Source of the DNA: Candidatus Eiseniibacteriota bacterium
Lineage (GTDB): Bacteria; Eisenbacteria; RBG-16-71-46; JABDJR01
Direction: 5' to 3'
DNA: 64,000 nt
Assembly (NCBI GenBank): GCA_963762255.1
Contig: CAVXKA010000001.1
Coordinates: forward strand, 256,001 to 320,000
A program made the position numbers and the translations under genes. This document shows positions 1 to 20,580 of this stretch, in pieces; the first letter of the stretch is position 1, and every line of letters begins with the position of its first letter. Below the pieces are notes generated by a model. It was not told the DNA's origin. It was given only the letters and a program-made list of their open reading frames with translations, and made no database searches.

Positions 1-1573
1 TGACCGCGTAGATGCCGTCCCCCGCCGTCTGGTCGGGCGAGACACCGTTATCGGCCATGAAGATCCCCGGGGTGGCGAAGCTCGGAAGCGGCGCCTGGTC
101 GCCGGTCACCCCTACCGTGTCGAGCGGTCCGGGCCCGAACAGGTTCGCGTTGACGCGGAAGAAAACGTCGATGGGGTGCTGGATCACGGCGTCGGGGTTG
201 TCGTCGTTCCAGAAGGCGCGCAGCGTGTCACTGCTTCCGGTGTCGCTGGTGACCAGGAACTGACGGTTGGAGCGCGGCTCGAAACCCTGCACGTGGTGGA
301 GGAATTTCCACTCGAGCGTGGCCTCCGCCTTGCCGGTCAGCGTGCTCTTCGAAACGCTCATCGGCACCGTCGTCACGTAGACCGAGTCCACGTCCGGGTC
401 CAGCATCAGCGCGTTGTCCTTGGTCGGATTGAACGTCAAGGGGACCAGGCTCCCCTCGATGAAGAAGGAGTCGGGCGGGCTCGAGTGGGTGATCATGAAG
501 ACGCTCATGTCCCCTTCGAACCGCAGGCGCTTCAGGATGAACGACTTCTTGTTCCCCACGCCGTCGTTGACGATCGGGTTCCCGGCCTGATCCTGAACGT
601 TGGTCACGGTCACGTCGTAGAAGCTCGCCGAGGGCGATGCGTTGGAGCCCAGGGTCAAGTGGACGATGGCGGCGTTGGAGCCGTCCACTACCGCACCGGT
701 CACGGTGTAGGTGGCGGGACCGGCGTGAACCGCGTAGTTCGTCGGGGTGGTGGCGCCGGTGCCCACCGGCTCATTGAACTCCACGTCGATCTTGTTGGTG
801 GACGTGGCGATCTGCTTCTGCGCGTCGACGGTGAACCCGGTCGCCTTGGCGCTCTGCAGCAGGGGCGGGGTGGTGTCGGAGGTTCCCTGCACCACAAAGG
901 TCATCATGCAGCTCATCTCCACCGGGACGGTCACGTCCCAGGTCGTGCTGCTCGGGGTGGAAAGCTGGACGGCGTCGCTGCACATGGCGTCCAGCGGGCC
1001 CTTGGTGGTGCCGTCCTGGGTGACCCAGAACTCGACGTGGAGGGTGTCACCCGCACCCACGCCCAGCGTGCTGAGAGAGATCTTCCCCTCGGTGAAGGTG
1101 CCGTCGGCCATCCCCAACCCGTTCGGCCCATCGCTCACCACGGTCCAGGCCGCGCCGCCCCATTGGTAGAGCACCTCGTAGTTGTACGAGTTGCAGGAGG
1201 TGGGGACGACGTCGTAGAGATAGAAGTCCGGCTTCTTGGGCACGGTGTTCCACGCGATCTTGCGCGAGAACGCATCGGTGGGGCCGCCGGCCACCGTGTT
1301 CTTATCGATGGCCAGTCCCAGGTTGATATCGCACCACGTGCCGTGGTCGTAGTCGAAGCCGAAGTAGAGGAAGTTGGTGTCGTTGGTCAGGTAGATGTTG
1401 CCCTGATCCAACTGGGTGAACTGGGTGTCACCCCCGTCCGCGTCCAGCAAGTTGGCGACGTTGAAGTCGTTGGTGCCGTCCACGACGATCGTTTGCGGAA
1501 CGAAAGCCCACGCCGGCGCCGCCAAGAGCAGAGCAGCGAAGAGCGGGAGCAAAGACGCGCGCAGAGTGCTCAT
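1..1573 (-). CDS. Secreted multidomain protein (signal peptide, DOMON/CBM9-like domain, Ig-like domain, CBM-like and choice-of-anchor-X-like segments); runs off the left edge
   Basis: Not in the ORF track because no stop lies inside the window. Manual translation from ATG 1573 (GGAGG RBS upstream): MSTLRASLLPLFAALLLAAPAWAFVPQTIVVDGTNDF...NIYLTNDTNFLYFGFD...; near the edge MADNGVSPDQTAGDGIYAV. Confidence 0.8.
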   Translation of the reverse strand, partial: MSTLRASLLPLFAALLLAAPAWAFVPQTIVVDGTNDFNVANLLDADGGDTQFTQLDQGNIYLTNDTNFLYFGFDYDHGTWCDINLGLAIDKNTVAGGPTDAFSRKIAWNTVPKKPDFYLYDVVPTSCNSYNYEVLYQWGGAAWTVVSDGPNGLGMADGTFTEGKISLSTLGVGAGDTLHVEFWVTQDGTTKGPLDAMCSDAVQLSTPSSTTWDVTVPVEMSCMMTFVVQGTSDTTPPLLQSAKATGFTVDAQKQIATSTNKIDVEFNEPVGTGATTPTNYAVHAGPATYTVTGAVVDGSNAAIVHLTLGSNASPSASFYDVTVTNVQDQAGNPIVNDGVGNKKSFILKRLRFEGDMSVFMITHSSPPDSFFIEGSLVPLTFNPTKDNALMLDPDVDSVYVTTVPMSVSKSTLTGKAEATLEWKFLHHVQGFEPRSNRQFLVTSDTGSSDTLRAFWNDDNPDAVIQHPIDVFFRVNANLFGPGPLDTVGVTGDQAPLPSFATPGIFMADNGVSPDQTAGDGIYAV

Positions 1574-1646
1574 TTCGAACCTCCCCCAACCGGGTCGGAC
1601 ATCCGTCCGACGGATGCGAAGCCTGCGGGTCGCTAGTGTGGCGTGG

Positions 1647-1660
1647 TTTGACCGGTCCAA
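1647..1660. promoter_or_regulatory. LacI-family operator copy 1 (TTTGACCGGTCCAA)
   Basis: Near-perfect 14-bp palindrome with central CG; matches copies at 14186 and 15347; lies downstream of a sigma70-like promoter. Confidence 0.75.
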
Positions 1661-1690
1661 CAGAGCGAGTTGGGCGACCGGTGAAGCGAC

Positions 1691-1720
1691 ATTTTACTTC
1701 ATTTGGGGGGTTCGCGTCAA
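1691..1720 (-). promoter_or_regulatory. sigma70-like promoter for the 1..1573 gene
   Basis: Minus strand TTGACG-18 nt-TAAAAT. Confidence 0.6.
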
Positions 1721-1837
1721 CGATGCAGCGCGCGCTGCCAGCGCCATAACATCATGTTAAATAATCATTTACAAGAACATGAGAGGTCGGTTCTCCCGTC
1801 CCCCGGACGAAGCCGGGGGCGAGCCTAGCGCCCTCGG

Positions 1838-2677
1838 CTAGCCCTTCACGCCGCCGAGCGTCAACCCGCTCACGAGGAAGCGATTGAGGACAAGGAACAG
1901 CACCACCACCGGGATCGAGACCAGCACGCTACCCGCCGCGTAGTTGGCCCATTCGGTCTGAAACGTCCCGGCCAGGGCCTCCAGCCCCAAGGGAAGGGTG
2001 AAGAGGTTCTGGTTGGACAGAACGACGCGGGCCACGATGAACTCGGACCATGCCGCCATGAACGAGAAGAGCGCGGTGATGGTGAGTGCGGGCAAAGAGA
2101 GCGGGAGCACGATCCTCACGAACGCTCCCATCGGCGTCAGGCCGTCGATGAGCGCGGCCTCCTCAAGATCTCGGGGTATGGAATCGTAGTACCCCTTCAT
2201 CGTCCACACGCAGAACGGCAGTGCCGTGGTCACGTAGACGATCATGAGCCCCATGAGCGAGTTCAGGAGATTCAGCTTCTGCAGCAGCAGGTACATGGGA
2301 AGGAGGAGCATCGTGGCCGGGAACATCTGGGTGATCAGGAACGACGTGAGGCCGATCCGGTGCCCGGGGAAGCGGAATCGGCTGAACGCGTAGCCCGAGG
2401 TGGCCGCCAGCGCCACCCCGATCAGGGTCACCGAAAGCGATACGATGAGGCTGTTTTTGAGCCAGAGCAGGAAGGGCTTCTCGAAGAGGATGATCCGGTA
2501 CGCCTTGAAGCTCGCTCCTTCCGGGATCAGCCGCAGCGAGGTCGAATAGAGCTGGTCCCCGGGGCGCAGGGAAATCCCGATGATCTGGAGGATCGGGTAG
2601 AGGGTGAGAAGCGTCACCACGATGAGAGTCGCGTGGACCAGCGCCCGCTGCCACCGGGGGGCCTTGATCTCCCCCAT
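1838..2677 (-). CDS. malG: Maltose/maltodextrin ABC transporter permease
   Basis: EAA loop (LEEAALIDG), QMFP and WSEFIVA motifs, C-terminal GLTLGGVKG typical of MalG. Confidence 0.9.
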   Translation of the reverse strand: MGEIKAPRWQRALVHATLIVVTLLTLYPILQIIGISLRPGDQLYSTSLRLIPEGASFKAYRIILFEKPFLLWLKNSLIVSLSVTLIGVALAATSGYAFSRFRFPGHRIGLTSFLITQMFPATMLLLPMYLLLQKLNLLNSLMGLMIVYVTTALPFCVWTMKGYYDSIPRDLEEAALIDGLTPMGAFVRIVLPLSLPALTITALFSFMAAWSEFIVARVVLSNQNLFTLPLGLEALAGTFQTEWANYAAGSVLVSIPVVVLFLVLNRFLVSGLTLGGVKG

Positions 2678-3555
2678 CAGTACACCGACTCCGTGCCCCG
2701 GGAGAAGCGCATGGTGATGAACACGAAGGCCAGCAACAGGAGGAAGATCACGATGGAAAACGCGGCGGCGTACCCGTAGCGGTACAGGGTGAATGCCTCG
2801 TTGTAGACGTAGGTGACCAGAATGTGGCTCTTATTGGCGGGCTTTCCGCCGTTGGTCACCAGCCAGATCACGTTGAGGTTGTTGAAGGTCCAGATGGTGC
2901 CGAGAACGATGGCCGGCACCAGCACCGGCTTCAGGAGCGGCAGCGTCACGTGGCGCAGCTTCCGCCACCAGTTGGCGCCGTCGATGGCGGCCACCTCATA
3001 GAGCTCGTGGGGGATCGACTGGAGCCCCCCGAGCGCAATCACCATCATGAACGGAAAGCCGAGCCAGATATTGGCGATGATGGCGGCGCTGAAGGCGCCG
3101 GTGGCGTCGGAGAGCCAGGGCACTTGCGGCAAACCGAACTTGTGGAGCCACAAGTTCACCGCCCCGTACTCGTAGTTGAAGAGTCCCCGCCAGGTCAGCG
3201 CAGAAATGTACTGCGGGATGGCCCAGGGGAGAATCAAGAGCGCCCGGTACGCCCATTGGCCGCGGATGGGGCGATTGAGCAAGATGGCCAGGGCGACACC
3301 GAAGGTGACGTGGAAGAAGAGGTTCACCACCGTCCACACCACCGTCTTCAGGAACACCCAGTACATCGGCGCGCTCGTGAAGAGTTCCACGAAGTTCCGC
3401 AATCCGACGAACTCGGGGTTGCGGAACGTGTAGAGGTTCATGTTGGAGAAGGCGATGCGGAAGTTGTAGAGGAACGGGTAGGCCACGACCAGGACCATGA
3501 CCAGGATGGACGGCAGGACGAGGGCGTAAGCGAGAGGAATGCTGCGACGGTTCAT
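2677..3555 (-). CDS. malF: Maltodextrin ABC transporter permease (MalF/MalC type)
   Basis: LILPWAIP, WLGFPFMM, LQSIPHELYEVAAIDGA, FNNLNVIWL motifs; coupled to neighbours. Confidence 0.9.
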   Translation of the reverse strand: MNRRSIPLAYALVLPSILVMVLVVAYPFLYNFRIAFSNMNLYTFRNPEFVGLRNFVELFTSAPMYWVFLKTVVWTVVNLFFHVTFGVALAILLNRPIRGQWAYRALLILPWAIPQYISALTWRGLFNYEYGAVNLWLHKFGLPQVPWLSDATGAFSAAIIANIWLGFPFMMVIALGGLQSIPHELYEVAAIDGANWWRKLRHVTLPLLKPVLVPAIVLGTIWTFNNLNVIWLVTNGGKPANKSHILVTYVYNEAFTLYRYGYAAAFSIVIFLLLLAFVFITMRFSRGTESVY

Positions 3556-4838
3556 CGCTTCATGGACTCGATCTTCTCCACCGCGTCCGCCTGCATGTCG
3601 TGCGCCGCCGCCTCGGGAGTCTTGCTCCCGTTCATCACCGCCTGCATGTTCGGGCGCATGGCGTCCCAGATCACCCGCATCTCAGGCACCACCGGCATGC
3701 GACGCCCTACCTTCCACTGCTCCAGCGATGCCAGCAGCGTTGCGTCGCCGCGAATCTCCGGCCGGTCGTAGGCGGCTTGGATGCTGGGGAGAATGCCCAG
3801 CTCGACCCCGAACCGCGCGGAAATGTCGGCCGAGGTGAGGTAGTCCAGCAGTTCTTTCACCACCGCCTCCTTGGCGGCGGGGAGGTTCACGTTCACCGAG
3901 TATCCCTTGCTCCCGATCATGGGCGCGGCCCAGGGTCCACCGGGCTCCGCGCGCGGGATGCGGGCGAGCTTGAACGGCACCCCGGCCTGCTGGTAATCGC
4001 GGAAGGACCAGGGACCGTTCACGATCATGGCCACCTTGCTCCCCTTGAACAGAGTGTCCATGAGTTGGTAGTCGCACTCCCTGGGCATGACCTCGTATTT
4101 GTCGCGCAACTCCCGGAGGAACGTCAGAGCCTTCACGGTGGCCGGACTGTCGAGGGTGGGCCGCCGCTCGGCGTCCATAACCCAGCCCCCGTAAGCCGTG
4201 ATGAAGGGAACGAGCCAGAAGGGCTCGTTGAACTCGAAGGCCAGCCCGTACACATCGACGCGTCCCGACGACTTCTTCATGGCCGCCTGGGCCGCCCGGA
4301 TCAGGTCCGCGAAGGTCTCGGGCGGGGTGCCGACCAGTTCCGTGTTGTAGAGCAGGTTCAAGTGGTTGCCGACCTGGTCGGGAAGCGCCCACACGTGTCC
4401 ATCAAGGGTATCGAGCGCGGCGGGCAGGAACCGCGCCCATGTCGCGGGGGGCAGGAACTCATCGAGCGGGCGGATGATCTGGAGAATGGAGAACGGACCT
4501 ACCTGGTCCGACGGACCGTACACGAGATCCGGTCCCCCACCGGCCAGCGCGGCGGTCTGGTACTGGCTGCGCAGGTTCTCGGTGTCGTAGTGCACGAGCG
4601 AGACCGTCAGCCCCGGGTGGCTCGCCTGGTACTCGGCGAGGATCGCCTCCATCACCGCCTTCTCCTGCGGGTCGCGCTGCTCCCAGATGACGATCTCCAC
4701 CGGGCCGGCGGGCTTGTCTCCCCCGCTCTTCTTGCCGCCGCATCCGCTAAGAAGCAGACCCGGGATCGCGGCCAGAAGCACCAGGGCCGCCGCGAACCCG
4801 TGACCGAGCCGTGACCTGTGCCGGAGTCGCATGGGCAT
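3552..4838 (-). CDS. malE: Maltodextrin-binding lipoprotein (extracellular solute-binding protein family 1)
   Basis: Lipobox LLSGC; GPDLVYGPSDQVG, AMIVNGPW, MPVVPEMRVIW motifs of the MalE/MalX family; start placed at ATG 4838 (or 4832). Confidence 0.85.
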   Translation of the reverse strand: MPMRLRHRSRLGHGFAAALVLLAAIPGLLLSGCGGKKSGGDKPAGPVEIVIWEQRDPQEKAVMEAILAEYQASHPGLTVSLVHYDTENLRSQYQTAALAGGGPDLVYGPSDQVGPFSILQIIRPLDEFLPPATWARFLPAALDTLDGHVWALPDQVGNHLNLLYNTELVGTPPETFADLIRAAQAAMKKSSGRVDVYGLAFEFNEPFWLVPFITAYGGWVMDAERRPTLDSPATVKALTFLRELRDKYEVMPRECDYQLMDTLFKGSKVAMIVNGPWSFRDYQQAGVPFKLARIPRAEPGGPWAAPMIGSKGYSVNVNLPAAKEAVVKELLDYLTSADISARFGVELGILPSIQAAYDRPEIRGDATLLASLEQWKVGRRMPVVPEMRVIWDAMRPNMQAVMNGSKTPEAAAHDMQADAVEKIESMKR

Positions 4839-4845
4839 TCCCTTC

Positions 4846-5322
4846 TTAAGGAACAACGAGCAACGAGTTCTTGCCGCCGTACCCATCGTCGGCGGACTCC
4901 GGGTTCGCGGGGTCCGTCTTCCACTCGGAGCCGTTCACCACGAACTTGTATTGGTAGCTCCCGGGATCCAGAGGCTTCACGACAAACCACACTCCACCAT
5001 CCCCCTTCGTCAAGGGATCAGCCGAGGTGTTCCAACTGTTGAAGGTCCCGGCGAGGCTCACGTTGGCGGCGCTGGGGGCACTGAGCGTGAACCGCCACCC
5101 CGCGTCGGTCTTGGTGGGAGCCTGGGCGGCGCCACCTGCTTGGGCCTGGCCCGCCGGAGCCTGTACCGCCGGGGCGGCCGGAGCCGCGCCTCCGCTCGGT
5201 TGAGCGAGGCCGGGGTACGGGCGCGTGCGATCGCAACCCGAGGCCACGAGCAGAAGGGCCAGAGCTGCCGCGATGCCCGGAAGAACGCGGCCGCTCACCG
5301 ACAAGATCGTGCGTGACTTCAT
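4846..5322 (-). CDS. CBM48/AMPK-type glycogen-binding lipoprotein
   Basis: Lipobox VASGC, Ala/Pro/Gln linker, VSLAGTFNSW...GVW...GSYQYKFVVNG.EWKTDPAN...DDGYGGKNS; ATG 5322 with GGAGG. Confidence 0.85.
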   Translation of the reverse strand: MKSRTILSVSGRVLPGIAAALALLLVASGCDRTRPYPGLAQPSGGAAPAAPAVQAPAGQAQAGGAAQAPTKTDAGWRFTLSAPSAANVSLAGTFNSWNTSADPLTKGDGGVWFVVKPLDPGSYQYKFVVNGSEWKTDPANPESADDGYGGKNSLLVVP

Positions 5323-5383
5323 GGATGTCCTCCATCGAGGCGGGGCGAGCGGCTTCATGCCGCCCACCCGCGCCGGCGAGGGA

Positions 5384-7633
5384 TCATTGCTGAGCTACGG
5401 TGAACTGCTGGCGCCGCTCGTCGAGGGTGAAGACATACGTCCCCGTCCCCGGGAACTGCACCTTGAGCGCGGTCCCTTGCCCGCTCACCGGCCGCACCGG
5501 GAACGTCCCGGGGAGCGTGAGCAGCGTGTTCTCGTCACCGCCGTAATCTGGCGGGGTGTCGAACGCGCCGTCGGTCAGGAACTTGAAGAACTTCGGCGCC
5601 CCGATCATATCCGCCGTGATCGCGAGCGTGACCGTCCACACGCAAGGCGGGGACTCGACCATCTGCGGGGCCTCGGCGGGATCCCACGAGGTGAACTCGC
5701 CGACGATCTGGATCGTGTTGAAGGCCGAAGTCCCGGCCGCCAGGGTGATGCTGCCCAGGTCCACATTGGCGCCCGCCACCGCCACACCGGAGCGGGTCTC
5801 TTTGACGAAGCAGGGAGAGGAGATCTCCACCTTGTACGTGCCGTTGGGCAGCGTCTGGAATCGGAACGTCCGCGCGGACGCGTCGCTCTTGACCGTGGCC
5901 AGCGGCGTTGTGGCCGTGCCCTGGTACAGGTCCACCGTCGCCTGCGGGTAGGGGCCGGTGGAAAGACCCGCGAACGCTACCGTCCCGGTGATCCCGCCGG
6001 TGGGCACGGTTCCCAAAAGGGTCGCGGAGAACTCGAGCCCGGACTCGTCGAGCCGGAACACGTAGTCCCCACCGGTCAGCACCGAGATCTTGAGCGCCGT
6101 CCCCTGACCGGAAACTGGCATCACGGCATAAGTCCCCGGCAGAGGCAGTGTCTCGCTCTCCGATCCGCCGTAGTCCAGCGGGCTGTCGAAGGCGCCGCCG
6201 GTGACGAACTTGAAGTTGTAGGTACCGGGTTGAATGGTGAGGGTGTCGACCCAGACGCAGTTCGGGAGTTTGGTCATGGACGGGAATTGCAGGCTCCACG
6301 CGTTGAAATCGCCCAGAACCTGGATCTTCGTGAACGCGCTCTCGCAGCCAGGCACCAGGGTGATCGTCCCGATATCGAAGACCTCGCCCCTCACGTACGC
6401 GACCGCGTTATGGCGCCCCTCGAGGTACCCCGGTGCGGTGACGACGACGTCGTAGTTCCCGCTGTTGAGCCCCTTGAAGGCGAACGCGCTGTCGGTCTCC
6501 GCGCTTGCCAGAACCGTCGTCGTTCCCGCGGTCCGGACCTTCACGGTGGCGGTGGGCCGTGTCGAAGGATGATCGGCGAACTGCACCACGCCGCTCAAAC
6601 TGCCGGTCAACTCGGCCAGGGTAATTGCGCCGAGATCCGTGTCCTGGCCGTTGGTGAAGGCCACGCCGGTTCGGCGCTCCTGCGCGAAATCGGTCGCGGT
6701 GATCACGACGTCGTAGCTGCCGGTCGCCAACCCAACGAATGCAAACGCGCTGTCGGTCTGCGCGCTCTGCACCTCCGTCGAGGATCCCGCGTTGAAGACC
6801 GTGACCGTGGCTTGCGGCCGCGGGCGCGGATTCCCCTGGAAGAGCACCACACCCTTGAGCGCTCCACCGGGCACTTCGAGCGTGACGTCACCCAGGCGAG
6901 ATTCCCGATTATGCCGGACGACGATACCACCGAGGCGCTGCGTCAGGTACCCGGGGCTCGTCACCGTGACCTCGTAGAGCCCGACCCCGACATCGATGAA
7001 GCTGAACTCGCCGGTCTGAGGATCGGTGGAGGCGATCAACGAACCCGCCTCCGCCCCCGGAGGGGTGATGGAGAACTCGCCCGTCCCCTCGTTCAGCACG
7101 ATCTGGTATTCCCCGGCGGTCTTCACCGAGATCTTGAGTGCGGTTCCCTGCCCCGAGACAGGGAGGGCGGGATAGGTTCCGGGCACGACCAGCACATCGT
7201 TTTCGCTTCCGCCGTAGTCGGGCGGACTGTCGAACGCCCCTTCGGTGACGAATTTGAACAAGTACGTGCCGGCCTGGATGGTCAGGGTGTCGATCCAGAC
7301 GCACTCCTGATCCTTGGTCATGAGCGGAGCCAGGGTCAGATCCCACGAGGTGAACTCGCCGGCGATCTGGATCTTGGTGAACTGGCTCTGACACACCCCC
7401 GCCGAGGGGGCGGCCACCACCACGCGGGCGCTGGGATAGGGCGGCGTACCGAGTCCCTGGAACACGACGCGTCCCACGATGTCCCCGCTGCCGCCGGGGC
7501 CCTCGATGCGCGTGACATCGGGGTTGTCCCCGCAGCCACCGAGCCATCCCAGGACGGCCGTCACGAGGAGCGCCGCGGCGATTCGAGTCGCCCGTCGCCG
7601 GGTCCTATGCAAAGGATCGGATGCCATCCACAT
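5384..7633 (-). CDS. Large lipoprotein with carboxypeptidase-regulatory-like (Cna-B-like) domains and three SusE/F-like starch-binding repeats
   Basis: Lipobox LGGC; three repeats IQI.G.F..W...M....CVW..TL.I...FKF.T.GAFD.P.DYGG.E...LKI; true start ATG 7633 (ORF track over-extends). Confidence 0.8.
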   Translation of the reverse strand: MWMASDPLHRTRRRATRIAAALLVTAVLGWLGGCGDNPDVTRIEGPGGSGDIVGRVVFQGLGTPPYPSARVVVAAPSAGVCQSQFTKIQIAGEFTSWDLTLAPLMTKDQECVWIDTLTIQAGTYLFKFVTEGAFDSPPDYGGSENDVLVVPGTYPALPVSGQGTALKISVKTAGEYQIVLNEGTGEFSITPPGAEAGSLIASTDPQTGEFSFIDVGVGLYEVTVTSPGYLTQRLGGIVVRHNRESRLGDVTLEVPGGALKGVVLFQGNPRPRPQATVTVFNAGSSTEVQSAQTDSAFAFVGLATGSYDVVITATDFAQERRTGVAFTNGQDTDLGAITLAELTGSLSGVVQFADHPSTRPTATVKVRTAGTTTVLASAETDSAFAFKGLNSGNYDVVVTAPGYLEGRHNAVAYVRGEVFDIGTITLVPGCESAFTKIQVLGDFNAWSLQFPSMTKLPNCVWVDTLTIQPGTYNFKFVTGGAFDSPLDYGGSESETLPLPGTYAVMPVSGQGTALKISVLTGGDYVFRLDESGLEFSATLLGTVPTGGITGTVAFAGLSTGPYPQATVDLYQGTATTPLATVKSDASARTFRFQTLPNGTYKVEISSPCFVKETRSGVAVAGANVDLGSITLAAGTSAFNTIQIVGEFTSWDPAEAPQMVESPPCVWTVTLAITADMIGAPKFFKFLTDGAFDTPPDYGGDENTLLTLPGTFPVRPVSGQGTALKVQFPGTGTYVFTLDERRQQFTVAQQ

Positions 7634-7671
7634 GCCCTGTCCCTCTTCCCGGTCCGCGCGGGACCGGTGGG

Positions 7672-8073
7672 TCAATCGACAATCAAGAGCGAGTTGAAAC
7701 CGCCGTATCCGTCGTCCTTGCGCTGGGGATTGTTGGGATCTTCCTTCCAGTTGTTCTCGTCGACGACGAACTTGTACTCGTAGCGTCCCGGCGGGAGGTG
7801 TTCGCGCCGTTCCCAGATGCCATCCCCATCCGGATCTTCCATCTTGCCCACCTGGTAGGTGCCGGTCTGCGCCTGGCCGCCGAGCCAGTTGTTCTCGGGC
7901 CAGTTGCCGGCGAGCTGAACCACACGGGCCGCCGGCGCCTGAAAGCGGAACAGTACGGTCCCGTCCGATTGACGGGTGGGAGGCGGCAGCCGCTTCTTGA
8001 TGAAGTTGAGGCCGCAGCCGGTCTGTCCCGCCGCCAGGGCGATCAGGATCAGACCGAGAACGAGCTTGCGCAT
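7672..8073 (-). CDS. Small CBM48 glycogen-binding lipoprotein
   Basis: Lipobox-like QTGC; VQLAGNW, GDGIW, GRYEYKFVVD..NWKEDPNN, DDGYGGFNS. Confidence 0.85.
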   Translation of the reverse strand: MRKLVLGLILIALAAGQTGCGLNFIKKRLPPPTRQSDGTVLFRFQAPAARVVQLAGNWPENNWLGGQAQTGTYQVGKMEDPDGDGIWERREHLPPGRYEYKFVVDENNWKEDPNNPQRKDDGYGGFNSLLIVD

Positions 8074-8090
8074 GAAAGATCACCTCTCCA

Positions 8091-10271
8091 TCAGAACTTG
8101 ATAATCGCCTCGAGCTGGAAGCGCTTCTCGTCTTCCAACTCCTGCTCCGCGCTGCGGACGGTGCCCGCCATGTTCAGGTACTGGGTCTTCGCCGCGTTGC
8201 CGTCGGCTCCCCGCTCGAAAATGAACATATCCCGGCCGATGTGCTTGTACTCGTTGGCCACCCCGTCGATCACCCACGGGTCCACTCCCCAGGACAGGCC
8301 CATCTCCATGGCCGGCGTGAACCGGTACTTGAGCTCCACGAAATGCGAGGTGAAGGTGTCCTTGAGCCGGAGCACCGGATCGTCGTAACGGACAATACGC
8401 GTGTCGGTGTTGAGACCGAGCCGCCGGGTGAGATCGAGGTGGAACGCGATCTGGTTGTCCCAGTACTTGGGCTTACGGCTCAAGCCGGTCGAATTCAGGA
8501 TTGCCCAGTACTCCACCGAGACATTGCGCGGGCGGTAGAAGGTCCACTTGGCGTGCGGCTTCCACGAGACCACGTCCTCGCCGCCCAGCATCACCAGACG
8601 GTCCACCGTGACCACGTGCTCGCCCTGCTCCAGCCAGAAGTTGTTGCTGTCGAACCAGAACTGATCGGTCCACGTCGCGCGGCGGTCGTAGCGGAAATCG
8701 TAGTAGTCCACCTTGAGCTCGGCTTCCCAGGGCCAGAGCTTCCATTCCGCTCCGTCGAACTTCACCCCGGTCCGGTACGTGGTCACCGCGTTGTAGCGGG
8801 TCTCGGGCGCGTACGTGCGATTGACGAGATCCGCGTCCTGGAACTCCATGGCGCCGGTCAGGTGCCAGCCTCGATAGGCGAAGTAGTGCACTCCGGCCGT
8901 GAACCGGCGGCTGGTGTTGAGCCGGAGGGTGCGGCTGTTCTCTCCACGCAGGGTCTGGGTGGTATCCGCGCCGGTGCCGTTGACGGAATCGATCCCGGAG
9001 TAGGTGATCTGGCGGTACTCGCCCTTGCCCGTTCCGATCCAGCTCTCGCCGCCGAGGACCTCGCCGAACAACTCGACGCCGGAGGGATCGTTCCGATAGC
9101 GGAGATCCAACCCGCCGCCGTGCCAGCTCTCCACCGTGCGCGGGAAGTAGCGGACGAAAAGACGGCGGGAATCTGCGGAGAGCGCTTGGTCGTCCACGAT
9201 CTGGACCAGCGCCCCCGGGTTCCGCCCGCGATCCACTCGGTAGGAGACTCCGGCGGTCAGACTCTCTCCGAGCGGGCGCGTCCACCGTGTGGCCAGCACG
9301 TTCTTGTTGTTGTCGGACGTGTTGACGTTGTACCGGCTGGTCCCGAACGCGGTGCCGCTCGGGGCGCCGATCACATCGCTCTTCAGGGTCTGGAGCGGAA
9401 CGTCCTGCGGGCTGTCGACGCCGCCGGTCCGGAAATCATCCGAGTACAGAAGGCGCCCCTCGAACTTGCCGAACTGCCGCCATGCCATCACTCCCTGCTG
9501 GTTGTAGCCCCAGGAGTGGTGGTACAGGCCGACGTCGCCGACCAGGTGCAGCGGATCGTCCCACACGCCCACCGAATCGTTGTCGAAGGCGACGAGGTTG
9601 ATGTCCTCGTTCTGCAGGAGGAGGCTCCCCCGGTCGAAGCGGAGGTTCGACTCCCAGAGTTGCACGTTCTGGTTCTGGTTGTTGATGTTGGTGAGAACGT
9701 GGGCGGTCAGATCTTCGTTCACGCGGATATTGAAGTCGAGGTCGATGTCGAAGTTGGGCCGGTCCAGATTCCACTCGGGGTTGCTCCCGGGGATCTTGCG
9801 GTCCTGCATGAGCACGATGTAGCGGGATCCCAGGAACACCTTGGGGGAGAGCTCGGTGTTGGAGGTGGCTTTCAGGACCACCACTTTTCCGTCCCCGCCG
9901 ATCTTCACCAGCGAGTTGCCGAAGTCGCCGCCGGTGACCGGATTCTCCGGATCCGCCACCCATTGTCCGTCGACCACGAACTTGTACTGGTGCTCGCCGG
10001 CGGTGAGCGGAACAACGACGGACCACACCCCGTCTCCACTCCGGGTCAAGGGCGCGACGGTGGCATTCCAATCGTTGAAATCGCCGGCCAGGCTTACCTG
10101 GCCCGCGTAGGAATCGGTGTAGGAGAACCGGACGCCTCCCGCCGCCGATTCGACTCCCGCCCCGGCCGGGGCCGCCCAAGGCAGCGCCAGCACCAGGACG
10201 AGCAGCGCCCATCCGATCCGCCACAGGCCCCTCGGCGGGGCCGTCCGAAACGAGGTCGGGATCGATCGCAT
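8091..10271 (-). CDS. N-terminal CBM48 domain fused to a putative outer-membrane beta-barrel
   Basis: Signal peptide, VSLAGDFNDW...HQYKFVVDGQWVADPEN, then amphipathic aromatic-rich strands ending FQLEAIIKF (BAM beta-signal-like). Confidence 0.75.
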   Translation of the reverse strand: MRSIPTSFRTAPPRGLWRIGWALLVLVLALPWAAPAGAGVESAAGGVRFSYTDSYAGQVSLAGDFNDWNATVAPLTRSGDGVWSVVVPLTAGEHQYKFVVDGQWVADPENPVTGGDFGNSLVKIGGDGKVVVLKATSNTELSPKVFLGSRYIVLMQDRKIPGSNPEWNLDRPNFDIDLDFNIRVNEDLTAHVLTNINNQNQNVQLWESNLRFDRGSLLLQNEDINLVAFDNDSVGVWDDPLHLVGDVGLYHHSWGYNQQGVMAWRQFGKFEGRLLYSDDFRTGGVDSPQDVPLQTLKSDVIGAPSGTAFGTSRYNVNTSDNNKNVLATRWTRPLGESLTAGVSYRVDRGRNPGALVQIVDDQALSADSRRLFVRYFPRTVESWHGGGLDLRYRNDPSGVELFGEVLGGESWIGTGKGEYRQITYSGIDSVNGTGADTTQTLRGENSRTLRLNTSRRFTAGVHYFAYRGWHLTGAMEFQDADLVNRTYAPETRYNAVTTYRTGVKFDGAEWKLWPWEAELKVDYYDFRYDRRATWTDQFWFDSNNFWLEQGEHVVTVDRLVMLGGEDVVSWKPHAKWTFYRPRNVSVEYWAILNSTGLSRKPKYWDNQIAFHLDLTRRLGLNTDTRIVRYDDPVLRLKDTFTSHFVELKYRFTPAMEMGLSWGVDPWVIDGVANEYKHIGRDMFIFERGADGNAAKTQYLNMAGTVRSAEQELEDEKRFQLEAIIKF

Positions 10272-11857
10272 CAGAAGGTCCCCTTCAAAGTGAGACGGAC
10301 CAGATCCTTGTTGTCGGCGCTTCCCTCGAGGTTTCCCTCGTAGACGGGGTTGCTTCCGCCGCCGATCCAGAACGGACCGTAGGCCAGGAACAGCTCCAGG
10401 TTGGGGCGGGGCCGGTACTGAAGCTCGCTGAAGAGCCCCTTCCTCACCCGGGCGGGGTCGTTGCCGAACGTGAAACGGTTGTACATCTTGACCGTGCTGC
10501 TGATGTTCACCGAGGTTTCGAACGAACCGAGTTCCTTCTGGAAGACGGTGCTGAGATCCCGGATCCGGAACTGCAAGCGCATCCAGGCCAACTTGTTCTC
10601 GACCTGCATCTCGGCGAAGACGTCGTCGTTGTCGGTGACCTGCTTGATCGTGGTGTTTCCGTCGTTCTGCCAGTCACGGGTGGTGCGCTTGCGGTAGAAC
10701 AGCTTGCTGGTGAACCCGTTCACGAACTCGACGTAGGCTTCGGAGTAGAACTCGGTGACATGCCGGCTCTGGTTCACGCGCTTGGTATAGGAGAGGTAGT
10801 TGTTCGAAAGCGTGATGGCCCGCCCCGGAACCAGGTACCAGGTGTTGACGTAGTAGCCGTTCTCGTCGCTGTTGCCGTCGCCGAGCTGGTTGCGGAACTG
10901 GGGCCCGTAGTACCAGCAACTGGGGGCGACGTTGAGATACCCGACCCGATAGTCCCCCACCCGTAGAGACCGGATCTCCGCTTTCACCACCGCGTCGTCG
11001 GGAAGCCCGTCCTCGGGGTGGCGGAGGCTGAACTTCGAGACGTCCATCGCGTCGCTGCGGTAGGGGGTGCCGACCGTGCGCTGCTGGCCTTCCGCATACT
11101 CGAGCGAGAAATCGATGTTGCTCCACGTGTAGCGCAGGTCGCCGGCCCAGACTTCGGTGACCGAAGCCTGATCCACCCCCGATCGCTTCACCGTGTTCTT
11201 GTGGTTCCAGGTGACGCCGCTACGGAGCTTGCCGCCGAAGAACTCGCGCCGGAGTCGGCCGATGTAGGCGTCGTCGGTGGCGGTCGGCTTGTCGGGAAGA
11301 GAACCGTTGGAGGGATTGCTCTGGGAAGAAAAGTCGCTCGCGATCAGGTTGATGTAGGTGGAGCCCTTGACCCCCAACATGGAATCGCGCGACCAGAGGT
11401 TAAGCCGCACGCCTTGCGCGTTGCCGCCGTCGTTGGAGGATCCCCCCTGGACGACCTGGATGAGGTGGTTGTCCACCCAGAAACGATCCTGGCGGCTGAA
11501 CAGGTAGGTCTCGATCCCCTTTCCGTTCACGTCCCGGTTGTAGCGCACGTGGGCTTCTCGGTACTGGAAGAGCGGTCTGCGGTTGCTGTTGCTCCCGGTG
11601 TTCCACTCCGCCTCGAACTTGGTGAATGCCTCCAGACCCGGGATCGGCTGGCTGAACAGCCGGAACTGCGTGTTGTTGAAGGTGTCGTTGCTGTTGCTGT
11701 CGAAGTCCCACTCGTAGCGGCGGTCCTGCTTTCGGACGTCGAGCTGGAAGACGTACTCGCCCTCAAGGCGGGTGAACGCCAGGACGGGGAGGGCCCCGGC
11801 CAGCAGGGCGGAGACGGCGAGCGCGGCAACGAGGAGGCGGGGCGAGCGCGGGGTCAT
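10271..11857 (-). CDS. Putative outer-membrane beta-barrel, paralog of the 8091..10271 barrel
   Basis: Start ATG 11857 overlaps the upstream stop; signal peptide, alternating hydrophobic strands, C-terminal VRLTLKGTF. Confidence 0.7.
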   Translation of the reverse strand: MTPRSPRLLVAALAVSALLAGALPVLAFTRLEGEYVFQLDVRKQDRRYEWDFDSNSNDTFNNTQFRLFSQPIPGLEAFTKFEAEWNTGSNSNRRPLFQYREAHVRYNRDVNGKGIETYLFSRQDRFWVDNHLIQVVQGGSSNDGGNAQGVRLNLWSRDSMLGVKGSTYINLIASDFSSQSNPSNGSLPDKPTATDDAYIGRLRREFFGGKLRSGVTWNHKNTVKRSGVDQASVTEVWAGDLRYTWSNIDFSLEYAEGQQRTVGTPYRSDAMDVSKFSLRHPEDGLPDDAVVKAEIRSLRVGDYRVGYLNVAPSCWYYGPQFRNQLGDGNSDENGYYVNTWYLVPGRAITLSNNYLSYTKRVNQSRHVTEFYSEAYVEFVNGFTSKLFYRKRTTRDWQNDGNTTIKQVTDNDDVFAEMQVENKLAWMRLQFRIRDLSTVFQKELGSFETSVNISSTVKMYNRFTFGNDPARVRKGLFSELQYRPRPNLELFLAYGPFWIGGGSNPVYEGNLEGSADNKDLVRLTLKGTF

Positions 11858-12732
11858 CGGCGGGCCCCCCTCTCGGGAAGACTCAGACGGAGCGATGCCC
11901 GGTAGGTGTTGCCCAGCATCGCGTGAGTGAGGAACGCAGTGTCGACTTCCCAACGCGTTCCCTTGACGCCGATGCCGCCGGCGAATTCCTCGTCGTAGAT
12001 CCCGGCGCGGACGGCGAAAACATCGTAGAACCAGATCTCCCCCGCATAGTTCCACGTGGGATGATCGCCGAGGTCGGACCGGCTGCACATGATCGTCGAT
12101 TCCGGACGCCAGCGATAGGACGCCGACAGCTCCACCCCGCCGGGAACCTTGTCTCCCCCGCTGTCCCCGATGAAGTTGAACTCCGGCTCGCCGAGATTTC
12201 GCAGCACGGCGCCGAATCGCCAGTTCGTCCGTTCTTGCCACAGGAGTCCGAGATCCCCGGTGAACTTGGTCTTGGATCCGAAATCGCGGTCGGGCCCACC
12301 CGCGTGACTGTCGAAGGATACGGCGGCGAGCTTACCGGTGGCGCCGAGGTGAACGGCCCGGTTGTTGTCGCGATATACCCAGCGCCCGTAGGAGAGACCG
12401 ATCAGATCCTCGGACACCACCCCATCCAGAGCCAGTCGGTGCCAGGATAGAGCCGTTCCCCCTCCGGCGAAGGGGAGCCCGGCGACCACGGACCCCGAGG
12501 TGAGATCCTCGACCATATAAGGACGCGAGTAGGTGAATAGACCCTGGGGCTGAGCGAGGACCGACAGCGCTGCGGGATTCCAGTGAGCGGCGGAAACGTC
12601 CTCGACGGCAGCGCCGAAGCTCCCGGCCAAGGCAAGTCCCCGCGCATCCACGTCAACACGTTCGAAGTAGGCACCGGCCGGAGCCGCGAGAAGAAGCACG
12701 GCTAGAAGCGCAAGCGGCAGCGCGCGCGTCAT
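11854..12732 (-). CDS. PorV/PorP-like (T9SS shuttle-type, FadL-like) beta-barrel
   Basis: DARGLALAGSFGAAVEDVSAAHWNPAAL N-terminal motif typical of the PorV/PorQ family; C-terminal LGNTYRASL; start ATG 12732. Confidence 0.75.
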   Translation of the reverse strand: MTRALPLALLAVLLLAAPAGAYFERVDVDARGLALAGSFGAAVEDVSAAHWNPAALSVLAQPQGLFTYSRPYMVEDLTSGSVVAGLPFAGGGTALSWHRLALDGVVSEDLIGLSYGRWVYRDNNRAVHLGATGKLAAVSFDSHAGGPDRDFGSKTKFTGDLGLLWQERTNWRFGAVLRNLGEPEFNFIGDSGGDKVPGGVELSASYRWRPESTIMCSRSDLGDHPTWNYAGEIWFYDVFAVRAGIYDEEFAGGIGVKGTRWEVDTAFLTHAMLGNTYRASLRLSLPERGARR

Positions 12733-12772
12733 CTCATCGCCCTCCCGCCGTTGGAACGATCCGGCGCCCGCA

Positions 12773-14131
12773 TCACCGGACCACCGCGATGCCGCGCCGG
12801 GCCTGGTCCTGGTCGGGCTCCAGGACGATCTGAAGGACGTAGATGCCGGCCTTGAGCAGCATCCCGTCGTCGTCGCGTCCGTCGAAGACGTTGGCCACAT
12901 GGGGTTCCGGAGCCTCCAGCTCGGCGGGCGTGAAGGCGTAGCTGTCATAGATCGTCCGCACGCGCTCGCCGTTCATATCGAAAACCCGCGCGGTGAACTT
13001 GATGCGCCGGGTGCGCCGCAGGTTCTCGTCGGTGATCCGCGGCGTCACGGTGAACCGGAATCCAAGGACATCGCCGAGCTCGGGAGCGATCGCCTTGGGC
13101 ACCGCCGTGAACTGATCGATCTGCAGGGCTTGCCCACGCACCGGCGGCGGCACGAAGAAGTAGCTCTCGACGTAGGCGGCATACTCCTCGGGAGTCTGCT
13201 GCGCGGAGGGCACCCGAACCGGAACGCCGAAATCGGCCACATGGTCCGGCGTGGCTCCCCCCGCAGCATTCACACGGTCGAGGGGGATGCGCACGAAGTT
13301 GTCCAGCACCACCGGGACCGCCGAGTCGACTTGCGTACCGCTGATGTTGTCGGGAGCGGTGTCGGGCCCGCCCCCGCCGTCGCCGCCGGTCGTGACCCAC
13401 GCGGCGAGCCGGATCTCCGTGACATCCGTGGGCATGACATAGACCGAGTCGCCGTAGTCGGCGCTGTACTCCCATGTCCCCTTGCCGAGGAAGATCGTAT
13501 CCCAGGGGATCGCCGCCTCCATGGCCCGGTTGGGAAGATCGCCGTTGAAGTTGGCGACGGTGAGGAAGCTCTCGGTAGCGACCTGGCTGTCCCGATTGGG
13601 CCCGGTGTAAGTCCAGAGCTGGGGAACGGTGTTGCGGTCCCAGGTGGCAAGGAAGACCTCGGGATTGAATCCGTTGTCGAACGAGACCGAGCGCCGCCAC
13701 CCTCCTTCGATCGACGAGAACGAGGTCCACCCCGGGTTCTGGCGGTCGGGCAGGGTGTCGAAGAAGATCATGATGTTGTTGTTGAAGCTGTACCCCTCGA
13801 CCGCCACATAGAGAAAGCGTGCGTCCCACGTGATGCGAATGTTGTTGATGTCGTTGAAGCGGCCCCACTGGGAGTCGATCGCGCTCTCCTCGGGCGCCCC
13901 ATTCGGCGTGCGCTGAAAGATCGTCTCGTCGTCCAAATAATCCGCGGTCGACCCGTCGATGACGATTCGATCGGTGAGGTCGATCGCGGTGCCGGCGCGA
14001 GCGATCGGAGCGGACAAGAAGAGAGCGAGAATGACCACCGCCGGAAGTGCCCGGCAGGCGGGCAAACCGCCGCGCAGCGCACTCTGCGAGGCCGTTCGCA
14101 GCCAAGAGCGGAGGGACGAATGGAGGTTCAC
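12773..14131 (-). CDS. Secreted DOMON-like protein with FlgD-Ig/T9SS-like C-terminal sorting domain
   Basis: Signal peptide; IVIDG...DINNIRITWDARFLYVAVEG; C-terminal VFDMNGERVRTI...FDGRDDDGMLLKAGIYVLQI. Confidence 0.75.
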   Translation of the reverse strand: MNLHSSLRSWLRTASQSALRGGLPACRALPAVVILALFLSAPIARAGTAIDLTDRIVIDGSTADYLDDETIFQRTPNGAPEESAIDSQWGRFNDINNIRITWDARFLYVAVEGYSFNNNIMIFFDTLPDRQNPGWTSFSSIEGGWRRSVSFDNGFNPEVFLATWDRNTVPQLWTYTGPNRDSQVATESFLTVANFNGDLPNRAMEAAIPWDTIFLGKGTWEYSADYGDSVYVMPTDVTEIRLAAWVTTGGDGGGGPDTAPDNISGTQVDSAVPVVLDNFVRIPLDRVNAAGGATPDHVADFGVPVRVPSAQQTPEEYAAYVESYFFVPPPVRGQALQIDQFTAVPKAIAPELGDVLGFRFTVTPRITDENLRRTRRIKFTARVFDMNGERVRTIYDSYAFTPAELEAPEPHVANVFDGRDDDGMLLKAGIYVLQIVLEPDQDQARRGIAVVR

Positions 14132-14185
14132 GCGTTCAAGCCTTCCGAGTGAGGGCGAGCCTGATGCGGAGAGGATAGGGTCCCG

Positions 14186-14199
14186 TTGGACCGCTCCAA
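14186..14199. promoter_or_regulatory. LacI-family operator copy 2 (TTGGACCGCTCCAA)
   Basis: Palindrome abutting the -10 box of the operon promoter. Confidence 0.8.
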
Positions 14200-14228
14200 A
14201 AACTAGTGGAGAGGTCGCCGGGTGTCAA
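14200..14228 (-). promoter_or_regulatory. sigma70 promoter of the glucan-uptake operon
   Basis: Minus strand TTGACA-17 nt-TAGTTT. Confidence 0.75.
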
Positions 14229-14268
14229 GCCATCGGGGACATCGGAGGAGGATCCGTGCGCCGACCGG

Positions 14269-15309
14269 TCAGGGTTGGGACACGGGCGGTGGGCCGCTTG
14301 ACTCGCGCGCCACCAACCGGGTGGGAACGACCCGCTCCACCGGTTCCGGATCCCGGAGTTCGAGGATCTCGAGCAGGAGCTGGGTGGCCATGCGGCCGAT
14401 GTCGTAGATGGGCTGCGAGAGGGTCGTCAGACGGGGGCGCACGTAGGTGGTCAGCCGGATGTCGTCCGCTCCAACGACCGTCAAGTCCTCTGGGACGTGC
14501 AGTCCGAACTCCTCCTGCGCCACGCGGAGCGCTCCCAGGGCCATCATGTCGTTGGCCGCCATCAGCGCCGTCGGGCGAGGGCGACGTACGAGAAGCGCCC
14601 GCGCCGCCTCGGCCCCACTCGATTCTGAAAAATTTCCCCAAAGACGAAGGTCGTCCTCCATGGCGATTCCCGCTTCGGCGAGGCCGTCCAGAAATCCGAG
14701 GCTGCGGTCCTGCCCCACCGTCGTGTTCTCGAGCCCGCCGATGAACGCGATGCGGCGGTGCCCGAGCGAGACGAGGTGACCGACCATCTCGCGGGCCCCG
14801 GACCGGTTGTCCGCGTAGACCGCGCTCGCTCCCGGCATGCGGGTGTTGACCAGCACCAGCGGCGTCCGCAATTCGATCAACTCGCGGACGTAGGCATCCT
14901 CCTTGATCGTGCCGAGCAGCAGCATGCCGTCGGCGGCGCCCTGCCGAAGCAGGCGGCGATGGGTCGCGTGTTCGAGGAAGCGCGCGTTGGCCATTTCGAT
15001 CACGAGTCGATACCCGGCCTCGGAGAGCACGTCGGAAATGCCGCTGATGGCCTCGGCGAAATAGACGTCGGCGAGCACGTGCGATCCGGTGGCGGGCAGG
15101 ATGACCGCCGCGGCGTTGGCGCGCCGGCGCGCGAGGCCGCGGGCCATGGTGTTGGGCTGGTAGCCCGCTGTCTCGATCACTTCGAGCACGCGGTCCCGGG
15201 TCACGGCGGTGATGCGCGGGTCGCCGTTGATGACGAGCGACACCGTCGAGCGCGAGACGCCGGCCAGGCGCGCGATGTCCCGAATGGTGGGCTTCGCAGT
15301 TTCGTGCAC
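14269..15309 (-). CDS. LacI-family transcriptional regulator
   Basis: PTIRDIARLAGVSRSTVSLVING HTH, YQPNTMARGL hinge, VPEDLTVVGADD, LTTLSQP; GTG 15309 with GAGAGG RBS. Confidence 0.92.
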   Translation of the reverse strand: MHETAKPTIRDIARLAGVSRSTVSLVINGDPRITAVTRDRVLEVIETAGYQPNTMARGLARRRANAAAVILPATGSHVLADVYFAEAISGISDVLSEAGYRLVIEMANARFLEHATHRRLLRQGAADGMLLLGTIKEDAYVRELIELRTPLVLVNTRMPGASAVYADNRSGAREMVGHLVSLGHRRIAFIGGLENTTVGQDRSLGFLDGLAEAGIAMEDDLRLWGNFSESSGAEAARALLVRRPRPTALMAANDMMALGALRVAQEEFGLHVPEDLTVVGADDIRLTTYVRPRLTTLSQPIYDIGRMATQLLLEILELRDPEPVERVVPTRLVARESSGPPPVSQP

Positions 15310-15346: not shown

Positions 15347-15365
15347 TTGGATCGGTCCAATTATA
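15347..15365 (-). promoter_or_regulatory. LacI operator copy 3 (TTGGATCGGTCCAA, 15347-15360) overlapping a perfect TATAAT -10 (15360-15365); probable autoregulation
   Basis: Palindrome directly upstream of the LacI gene. Confidence 0.75.
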
Positions 15366-20518: not shown

Positions 20519-20580
20519 CTCCTTTACCTCCTTGCTCATCCCTGCAGCGCTTCCAGTCTGAGTGCCGCACAGCGAGAGAG

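Follow-up and report, generated by a model that had tools for sequence, protein, structure and literature searches.

Two adjacent genes of an uncultured soil bacterium of Candidatus Eiseniibacteriota, here called A and B, encode predicted outer-membrane β-barrels of no described family, and B carries a carbohydrate-binding module (CBM) of family CBM48 ahead of its barrel. The genes lie in a 64,000-nucleotide stretch of DNA (assembly GCA_963762255.1, contig CAVXKA010000001.1, positions 256,001 to 320,000 of the forward strand), which was analyzed at its full length and is referred to below as the window. Together with a small PorV/FadL-like barrel and a small CBM48 lipoprotein, they form a near-invariant core module, found in a candidate phylum that lives in soils and sediments, in which a CBM is fused to an outer-membrane barrel. 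We assign a probability of about 0.5 to the reading that A and B provide the TonB-independent outer-membrane passage of an α-glucan utilization locus specific to Candidatus Eisenbacteria, with tethered periplasmic CBM48s capturing chains of starch, glycogen, pullulan or maltodextrin. Searches of Pfam, NCBIfam, the PDB and the literature (subscription journals lay outside this search) returned neither a described CBM-fused outer-membrane barrel nor any account of the module.

Predicted barrels outside the described families

A preliminary description, made from the letters and their translations, had placed A and B on the window, and its coordinates, reading frames and stop-to-start overlap of the two genes were borne out (Table 1). 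The overlap amounts to one base, the TGA of A and the ATG of B reading TGATG. On the other side, the gene for the PorV-like barrel overlaps the 5′ end of A through ATGA, and the small lipoprotein gene begins 17 bases past B. Because of these overlaps and the short gap, the four genes are tightly coupled, and the PorV-like gene, A and B are translationally coupled. A scan of window positions 1-15000 for promoters and terminators did not rise above shuffled expectation. In one metatranscriptome library, contigs of a relative about 91% identical spanned the last third of B, at its 3′ end, and the gene for the lipoprotein; a second library yielded short contigs over portions of both genes, and a third gave no contigs for either. 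Such libraries can contain DNA, and the contigs therefore do not show transcription.

AlphaFold2 (AF2) models were built on family alignments of 51 sequences for A and 50 for B, giving a mean predicted local distance difference test score (pLDDT) of 86.1 and a predicted template-modeling score (pTM) of 0.77 for A, and 86.8 and 0.75, respectively, for B. Counted in the DSSP strings of the models, A has 24 strands over residues 28-527, and B has 24 strands over residues 144-725, following a β-sandwich at 40-124. The barrel of A begins directly after the signal peptide, and in B the CBM48 is followed by a linker of about 19 low-confidence residues (pLDDT below 50 at 138-140). In both models turns of 2-4 residues alternate with long loops, which is the classical outer-membrane pattern, and in 19 of the 24 strands of each barrel the family-averaged hydrophobicity swings between hydrophobic and polar positions by 2 Kyte-Doolittle units or more. 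The last residue of both proteins is Phe. Signal peptides, even numbers of amphipathic strands, short periplasmic turns and a C-terminal aromatic residue are the classical features of barrels assembled by the β-barrel assembly machinery, and A and B have all of them. The models and these features thus agree with the preliminary description, which had proposed outer-membrane barrels ending in Phe and had suggested a strand count as a check.

Conserved aromatic residues are found in the long loops of A (Y48, W50, F52, F126, W127 and W497) and of B (W237, Y250 and Y256; Y528, W534, W539, F540, F545 and W546), the aromatic-rich conserved loops of B being those at 231-258 and 528-565. A helical insert at residues 662-716 stands before the last strand of B.

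No described family accounted for either barrel. Barrel A had no match in Pfam or NCBIfam, and the matches of gene B in these collections were limited to the CBM48/AMPK1_CBM module, with none on the barrel; in Pfam, no barrel family appeared at an E value of 1 among the 51 members of the A family and the 50 members of the B family. PDB sequence profiles returned only chance-level matches to ribosomal protein L6 for A and only CBM48 proteins for B. The barrels had been described as unrecognized and as lacking a TonB plug, and both statements held, no described family fitting A or B in Pfam, NCBIfam or the PDB profiles and neither Plug nor TonB_dep_Rec of Pfam matching them. The proposed Foldseek comparison with the PDB returned only generic large barrels, whose template-modeling scores did not exceed 0.48 with A and 0.31 with B. 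With an exhaustive aligner, the best structural neighbors of A were the PapC/FimD usher pores (Z 17.9, 16.9 and 16.2; next match, 14.3), and those of B were a tie of 22- to 24-strand barrels (SusC-like, Z 16.2; FyuA, 15.8; FimD, 15.0; BtuB, 14.9). As sequence identities in these fold matches were 5-11% and no accessory usher or TonB domain was present, the matches reflect barrel size only.

Several specific identities were considered and rejected. A TonB-dependent transporter of the SusC type is contradicted by the missing Plug and TonB_dep_Rec domains, by the CBM48 that precedes the barrel of B and by the generic fold matches. Maltoporins and sugar porins (LamB, ScrY) gave no Pfam match at E 1 and have 18 strands, not 24; their fold matches were again generic (Z 13.3 for 1mpr against A and 13.2 for 1a0s against B). 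For A as a fimbrial usher there was no usher match in Pfam, and 528 residues leave no room for a plug or terminal domains. The exopolysaccharide porins AlgE, PgaA and BcsC, which have 16-18 strands and are encoded alongside a polysaccharide synthase and a periplasmic partner of the TPR type, were rejected for want of an Alginate_exp or related Pfam match in A or B, the fold match to AlgE also being generic (Z 13.6 for A and 14.6 for B). Membership in DUF6029 (PF19494) was rejected as well: this family had no Pfam match in the source genome even at E 10, it was likewise unmatched in the 51 A members, the 50 B members and 86 distant A-like proteins, and hhalign comparison with six DUF6029 proteins of the phylum gave probabilities of 1.4% and 0.5%. 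A very remote relationship between DUF6029 and A/B is possible.

The fusion of one barrel to CBM48, also claimed in the preliminary description, could be confirmed with both family hidden Markov models (HMMs) that were scored on the N terminus of B (PF02922 and PF16561), which exceeded their curated cut-offs (AMPK1_CBM, 52.4 bits against 26.8; CBM_48, 43.3 bits against 22.4). CBM48 was present in 50 of 50 B-family members. A profile of the module matched the glycogen-binding domains of AMP-activated protein kinase (AMPK) β subunits at E 9e-17, with the FN-x-W, YKF and GQW stretches aligned, and the modeled domain superposed on 4aef_B with a root-mean-square deviation (rmsd) of 1.6 Å over 87 residues (Z 12.9; 1m7x_A, Z 11.5; 8xxa_A, Z 11.1). 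Four residues, W68, K97, W104 and N119, are invariant in the 50 sequences and lie inside the stretches aligned to AMPK β; they are putative sugar-contact positions. In an even-stranded barrel the N terminus is in the periplasm. Given this N terminus and the low-confidence linker, the CBM48 of B should be periplasmic.

Probable common ancestry and distribution of A and B

The preliminary description had called A and B paralogous on the basis of ordered motif pairs, every one of which was found in both translations and in the same order: EWDFD (A49-53) and EWNLD (B166-170), NAQGV (A145-149) and NQQGV (B256-260), SDF (A174-176) and SDDF (B277-280), DLRY (A240-243 and B389-392), and a C-terminal stretch containing ELQYRP in A and ELKYRF in B. 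BLASTP aligned the two proteins over a C-terminal stretch only (E 0.017). A full-length hhalign comparison gave a probability of 14% and an E value of 0.0019 over 112 columns, and it put the NAQGV/NQQGV, SDF/SDDF and DLRY motifs in register. Profiles of the barrels alone produced two collinear matches, one scoring 40.6 (E 4e-4; A 146-304 with B 257-455) and the other 36.7 (E 1.3e-3; A 476-494 with B 644-662). Reversed-profile controls scored 20.5-21.2, and 39 of 40 window-shuffled controls scored 23.6 or less, the remaining one reaching 33.6 and none 36.7. DUF6029 barrels of the same phylum, which are about 500 residues long and served as a further control, scored 26.2 with A and 22.7 with B.

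The module also occurs in a divergent clade, whose A is about 28% identical to that of the window. BLASTP aligned this A with its own B at E 0.007 over 197 collinear residues from strand 1 onward, and it was only for this pair that the EW motifs fell in register. When clade profiles were compared by hhalign, divergent A scored 38.7 with divergent B and 39.8 with main-clade B (reversed profiles, 13.3-18.1), and main-clade A scored just 27.0 with divergent B. In the models the aligned motifs lie on matching strand numbers (6-11 and 22-23); in both barrels strands 5 and 7 are each followed by a long conserved loop, and a long insert stands ahead of the last strand. When 1.84 billion proteins were searched with the A profile, 176 relatives were recovered; the matches listed included 147 new ones, not one of which fitted the B-barrel HMM. 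The similarity of A and B is weak, but because the collinear matches recur and beat the reversed, shuffled and DUF6029 controls, homology is probable, and we regard a distant common ancestry of A and B as quite likely. The earlier claim of paralogy thus holds as far as the collinear matches and the equal strand count carry it, that is, as probable and not as proven.

Word-indexed searches returned 153 relatives of A and 60 of B, and those with a named source came nearly all from metagenome-assembled genomes of Candidatus Eisenbacteria. The sole annotation on the relatives of B was "glycogen-binding domain-containing protein." A scan of one genome per species yielded 68 loci, almost all labeled Eisenbacteria or Eiseniibacteriota and a few labeled Gemmatimonadota, Krumholzibacteriia or plain "bacterium." The source genome, which is 93.6% complete, has one copy of A and one of B. 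Across a sample of the phylum, A was present in 59 of 201 genomes (41 of 121 when only high-quality genomes are counted), and its occurrence differed among families (7/7 in f1, 5/5 in f8 and 0/41 in f5). The A/B pair is almost confined to Candidatus Eisenbacteria, where it is an accessory trait, and this accessory, single-copy distribution fits a nutrient-acquisition locus and not a housekeeping machine.

Among the more distant A-like proteins, P0285 (698 aa) joins a barrel at 177-698 (E 5e-14) to an N-terminal CsgG-like lipoprotein domain (PF03783, E 1.9e-7), which means that A-type barrels elsewhere carry other periplasmic N-terminal domains. P0273 (682 aa) has a 240-residue N-terminal extension of no assigned type. 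In P0237 (5047 aa), positions 466-501 of the A profile were matched in 15 separate stretches (E 1.9e-29), apparently a repeat similar to the conserved loop ahead of the last strand of A. With P0312 as the query, one further relative was found, which had no annotation.

The conserved module and its neighbors

Gene neighborhoods were compared by running HMMs of the window genes against the six-frame open reading frames (ORFs) of the 68 loci, and the denominators given here are the loci with room for the gene in question. A PorV/FadL-like barrel stood directly upstream of A in 60 of 60 loci, and all 64 loci examined for it had CBM48 downstream of A. In 60 of 61 loci the B barrel was present, the exception (L071, of the divergent clade) having a weak match, and a CBM48 lipoprotein followed B directly in 57 of 58. 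Further out, the 30 full-length 21-kb loci included 24 with the solute-binding protein, 23 with a permease and 23 with a relative of the 837-aa secreted protein P0335, whose C terminus resembles type IX secretion system (T9SS) sorting domains (FlgD_ig, E 1.9e-5; Por_Secre_tail, E 2.8e-4; both below the cut-off). Equivalents of the 749-aa multi-CBM48 lipoprotein of the window are carried by related loci.

Other loci add further genes of α-glucan metabolism. A MalK-type ATPase is encoded in loci L025 and L027; L025 also encodes a lipoprotein with four CBM48 repeats and a secreted GH13 amylase with two CBM48s (Alpha-amylase, 1.4e-61; Malt_amylase_C), and L070 encodes a CBM48-GH57 enzyme and Glucodextran_C proteins. 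An arrangement of four CBM48s and GH13 lies within the module in L025 and elsewhere in the source genome. With this conserved synteny of CBM48 lipoproteins, a MalEFG-like importer and GH13/GH57 enzymes, the α-glucan or maltodextrin context of A and B, which the preliminary description had suggested, is strongly supported.

Table 1. Features of the A/B locus, in window coordinates
Feature	Position	Strand	Remarks
PorV/PorQ-like (FadL-superfamily) small barrel	11854..12732	minus	Probable start Met73 of ORF 11854-12948
Barrel A gene	10271..11857	minus	528 aa; signal peptide residues 1-27; predicted 24-stranded β-barrel; C-terminal Phe; no known family
Gene B	8091..10271	minus	726 aa; signal peptide, N-terminal CBM48, predicted barrel, final Phe
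CBM48/AMPK-β-type glycogen-binding module of B (about residues 37-124)	9900..10163	minus	Pfam above cut-off
Barrel part of B (residues 144-726)	8094..9842	minus	24 predicted strands; ends in Phe
Small lipoprotein P0333, 133 aa	7672..8073	minus	Lipobox Cys20, tether, CBM48-like domain
Large lipoprotein, 749 aa	5384..7633	minus	Lipobox LGGC; three CBM48-like and four CarboxypepD_reg-like domains
Second small CBM48 lipoprotein P0334	4846..5367	minus	Lipobox ASGC
CUT1-type sugar ATP-binding cassette (ABC) importer	1838..4886	minus	SBP_bac_8/SBP_bac_1, BPD_transp_1 (Pfam)
Solute-binding protein of importer	3552-4886	minus	
Two importer permeases	2677-3555 and 1838-2677	minus	
P0335, 837-aa secreted protein, 5′ part	1..1660	minus	T9SS-type C-terminal sorting domain; gene continues past window start

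The family of the small lipoprotein P0333 is the most conserved of the module, with a mean column identity of 65% over 40 orthologues. Its lipobox Cys opens an almost invariant tether, C-x2-3-L-N-F-[IV]-K-[KR]-R-L-P-P-P, which in the divergent clade reads ...V-I-E-D-R-L-P-P-P, with the charges switched. A linker conserved to this degree points to a fixed contact with another protein, and the partner would most simply be one of the barrels. The multi-CBM48 lipoproteins of many loci (L023-L064) have a conserved C-A-G-G-W-R-[GN]-G after the lipobox, and P0004-like lipoproteins open with C-G-R-N-R...L-L-x-P-[ST]; both starts may be sorting or docking signals unlike the acidic export signal of Bacteroidota.

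The source genome encodes the T9SS protein SprA (SprA_N, 137 bits) and at least seven genes of the PorV/PorQ family above the cut-off, with several weaker ones besides; this paralogue set is unusually large. The PorV-like gene of the locus scored 62 bits to PorV_fam against a cut-off of 90 in NCBIfam (40.6 bits in the genome scan) and had a TraF_2 match of 34.4 bits and a weak Toluene_X match in Pfam. Its product is a divergent relative of the PorV/PorQ family, under the curated threshold, and may hold T9SS-type cargo of the locus at the cell surface. Elsewhere in the window, a 546-aa protein (18899-20539, minus strand; genome-scan score to PorV_fam, 100.9 bits) has a PorV/FadL-like barrel at its N terminus, thrombospondin type 3 repeats and, at its C terminus, an OmpA peptidoglycan-binding domain. 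A 3458-aa protein (20616-30992, minus strand), which carries Ig-like repeats and has a C-terminal domain of the FlgD_ig type, is a probable T9SS cargo of very large size.

Upstream of the PorV-like gene, the ORF at 12945-14105 (minus strand; 386-452 aa) belongs to no family; it is conserved only in close relatives, and its match to the C-terminal end of PorU, the T9SS sortase, was at chance level (E 0.066). Beyond it lie an ABC-2 type permease fused to a CAAX-protease (Rce1-like) domain (15361-17574, minus strand) and an adjoining ABC ATPase (17391-18155, minus strand), a pair kept upstream of the module in the close relatives L010 and L012-L015.

Proposed sugar passage, rival readings and known systems

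In the reading that we prefer, the multi-CBM48 lipoproteins, the T9SS-delivered protein and the CBM48-bearing GH13/GH57 enzymes would bind and cut α-glucan, presumably at the cell surface. The resulting chains would then cross the outer membrane through A and/or B, the conserved aromatic-rich loops lining the path and no TonB plug being involved; the clusters of conserved aromatic residues would suit such a sugar path. On the periplasmic side, two CBM48s, one flexibly tethered to the barrel of B and the other on the adjacent lipoprotein, would catch the chain and hinder its back-diffusion, and the MalE-like binding protein and MalFG(K)-like importer would finally take it over. In this scheme we infer sugar conduction and its direction, the periplasmic position of the CBM48s and a physical association of A with B. 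The preliminary description had envisaged a hetero-oligomeric maltodextrin channel, possibly of a new porin family, with a glycogen-binding domain drawing substrate inward; of this, the new barrel families, the CBM48 and the α-glucan uptake context stand, and the rest of the channel model is inferred. A bolder version, which we consider doubtful, would make A and B a new class of TonB-independent glycan importer, namely a hetero-oligomeric two-barrel machine of 24-strand pores whose periplasmic CBMs, that of B and that of the tethered lipoprotein, serve as a ratchet or gating plug. It would reel in long α-glucan chains without TonB energy and would represent an alternative to SusCD, evolved in a lineage that is sister to the Bacteroidota.

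Several observations weigh against sugar passage through A and B. The solute-binding protein is missing from 6 of the 30 full-length loci, the window's own locus has no amylase, and the frame of the source genome in which four CBM48s are followed by GH13 lies on another contig (C2:747464-750492). The Bacteroidota-type acidic export motif is not evident in the CBM48 lipoproteins, of which just 16 of 54 have D or E at positions +1 to +6 of the Cys. Without a plug, a barrel of 24 strands would leave a very wide opening, so that A and B may be occluded and serve as platforms rather than channels. Moreover, clusters of DUF6029 were among the closest named neighbors of both barrels in a protein language-model search (0.96 and 0.94), and DUF6029 has been proposed in one paper to be a polysaccharide-export barrel (PMC9603273).

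The platform just mentioned would anchor and organize a surface assembly for starch binding and degradation, made up of CBM48 lipoproteins and of T9SS cargo held by the PorV-like barrel, with oligosaccharides crossing through other porins. The T9SS and the large PorV/PorQ set of the genome, the T9SS-type C-terminal domain and several lipoproteins encoded in the locus, and the tether beside the lipid anchor of P0333, which suggests a specific protein-protein contact, all speak for it, as does the covariation of the PorV-like and B distance matrices (r 0.93; partial r 0.69 given A), a weak signal that is confounded by phylogeny. However, two 24-strand barrels would be a costly anchor, the module encodes no other sugar porin, and aromatic-rich conserved loops next to an importer fit a sugar path, so we regard a pure platform as unlikely.

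It is less probable still that A and B form a private translocon which exports or exposes the CBM48 lipoproteins or T9SS-type cargo of the locus, and the same holds for a variant in which the small lipoprotein sits in the barrel lumen, as LptE does in LptD. LptD has a periplasmic N-terminal β-sandwich fused to a very large barrel and works with the small partner lipoprotein LptE. B, with its own β-sandwich and large barrel and a small lipoprotein gene behind it, has the same outline, and the constancy of that lipoprotein and its tether would agree with a translocon; so would the usher pores as top structural neighbors of A, since ushers pass folded proteins. Yet neither A nor B is related in sequence to ushers, LptD, Slam or components of the T9SS, a T9SS is already encoded in the genome, and an accessory distribution tied to α-glucan genes would demand a private translocon for a single locus.

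Secretion of α-glucan or exopolysaccharide, with A and B acting like AlgE, PgaA, BcsC or Wzi-type porins with a periplasmic N-terminal domain, appears very unlikely. One source labels an A homologue with a name beginning "Alginate expo...", DUF6029 with its proposed export role comes near both barrels in the language-model search, and the fold matches include AlgE, Wzi and PelBC, but in the generic Z range of 12-15. Against export, no synthase, glycosyltransferase, Wzx/Wzy, outer-membrane polysaccharide export (OPX) or polysaccharide copolymerase (PCP) gene was detected with Pfam in the flanks of the four loci scanned (the window, L025, L027 and L070), the conserved partners are a binding-protein-dependent importer and hydrolases, and the DUF6029 profile comparisons were negative. 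Finally, it is barely plausible that A and B are unrelated general porins placed by chance in a sugar locus, their motifs matching through shared β-barrel composition: the lack of significant BLASTP similarity beyond one short stretch, hhalign probabilities of just 14-36% and the lack of B-like proteins among the listed A relatives would allow this, but the collinear matches recur in four profile combinations above all controls, strand count, loop positions and motif-bearing strands agree, and A-B adjacency is strict in 60 of 61 loci.

Sugar passage through A and B can be set beside several known systems. DUF6029 and Wzi-like barrels resemble A as outer-membrane barrels of about 500 residues that end in Phe and occur in the same phylum; DUF6029 is found in 68 of 151 genomes of that phylum, a tally that includes one genome flagged as unpublished (G015), and its genes sit at loci other than those of A and B. 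PapC and FimD share the 24 strands of A (rmsd 5.7 Å over 370 aligned residues at Z 17.9), but they differ in sequence (7-10% identity), and A comes without plug, N- or C-terminal usher domains or pilus genes. From LptD, A and B differ in having no sequence similarity, a fold match of A in the generic range (Z 11.0-11.2), an N-terminal domain, in B, that is a carbohydrate-binding module and a locus that is accessory, not essential.

The closest functional parallels are with sugar uptake systems. In E. coli, LamB with MalEFGK2 lets maltodextrin pass independently of TonB and feeds a MalE/MalFGK-type importer, as is proposed here, and in LamB as in A/B aromatic residues are expected to guide the sugar; LamB, however, is an 18-strand trimer of about 420 residues with its own Pfam family, whereas A and B are much larger, paired and, in one case, fused to CBM48. 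The starch utilization system (Sus) of Bacteroides (SusC/SusD with SusE/F/G) likewise clusters a barrel with starch-binding surface lipoproteins that have CBM-like domains and a CBM-bearing GH13 amylase, and Bacteroides and Eisenbacteria, both of the Fibrobacteres-Chlorobi-Bacteroidetes (FCB) group, would share the logic of bind, cut and import. SusC is a 22-strand, TonB-dependent barrel with an N-terminal plug and SusD as a lid; in contrast, A and B have about 24 strands, no plug, TonB box or SusD-like partner, and a CBM48 on one of them, and uptake across the inner membrane at their locus is by a binding-protein ABC importer, unlike in Sus.

To our knowledge, how polysaccharide fragments pass the outer membrane beyond Bacteroidota and Proteobacteria is largely unknown. 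Sugar passage through A and B would offer a concrete way into studying how Eisenbacteria turn over carbon, and structural work would gain two new barrel families. Should the barrels be scaffolds or protein translocons instead, the module, with its conserved lipoprotein tether and dedicated PorV-like barrel, would nonetheless represent a new envelope assembly. By comparative analysis, the locus appears to resemble both Sus of Bacteroides and LamB-MalEFGK of E. coli in function, with A and B outside both families; if they conduct α-glucan chains, they would represent a third outer-membrane design for starch uptake beside LamB and SusCD.

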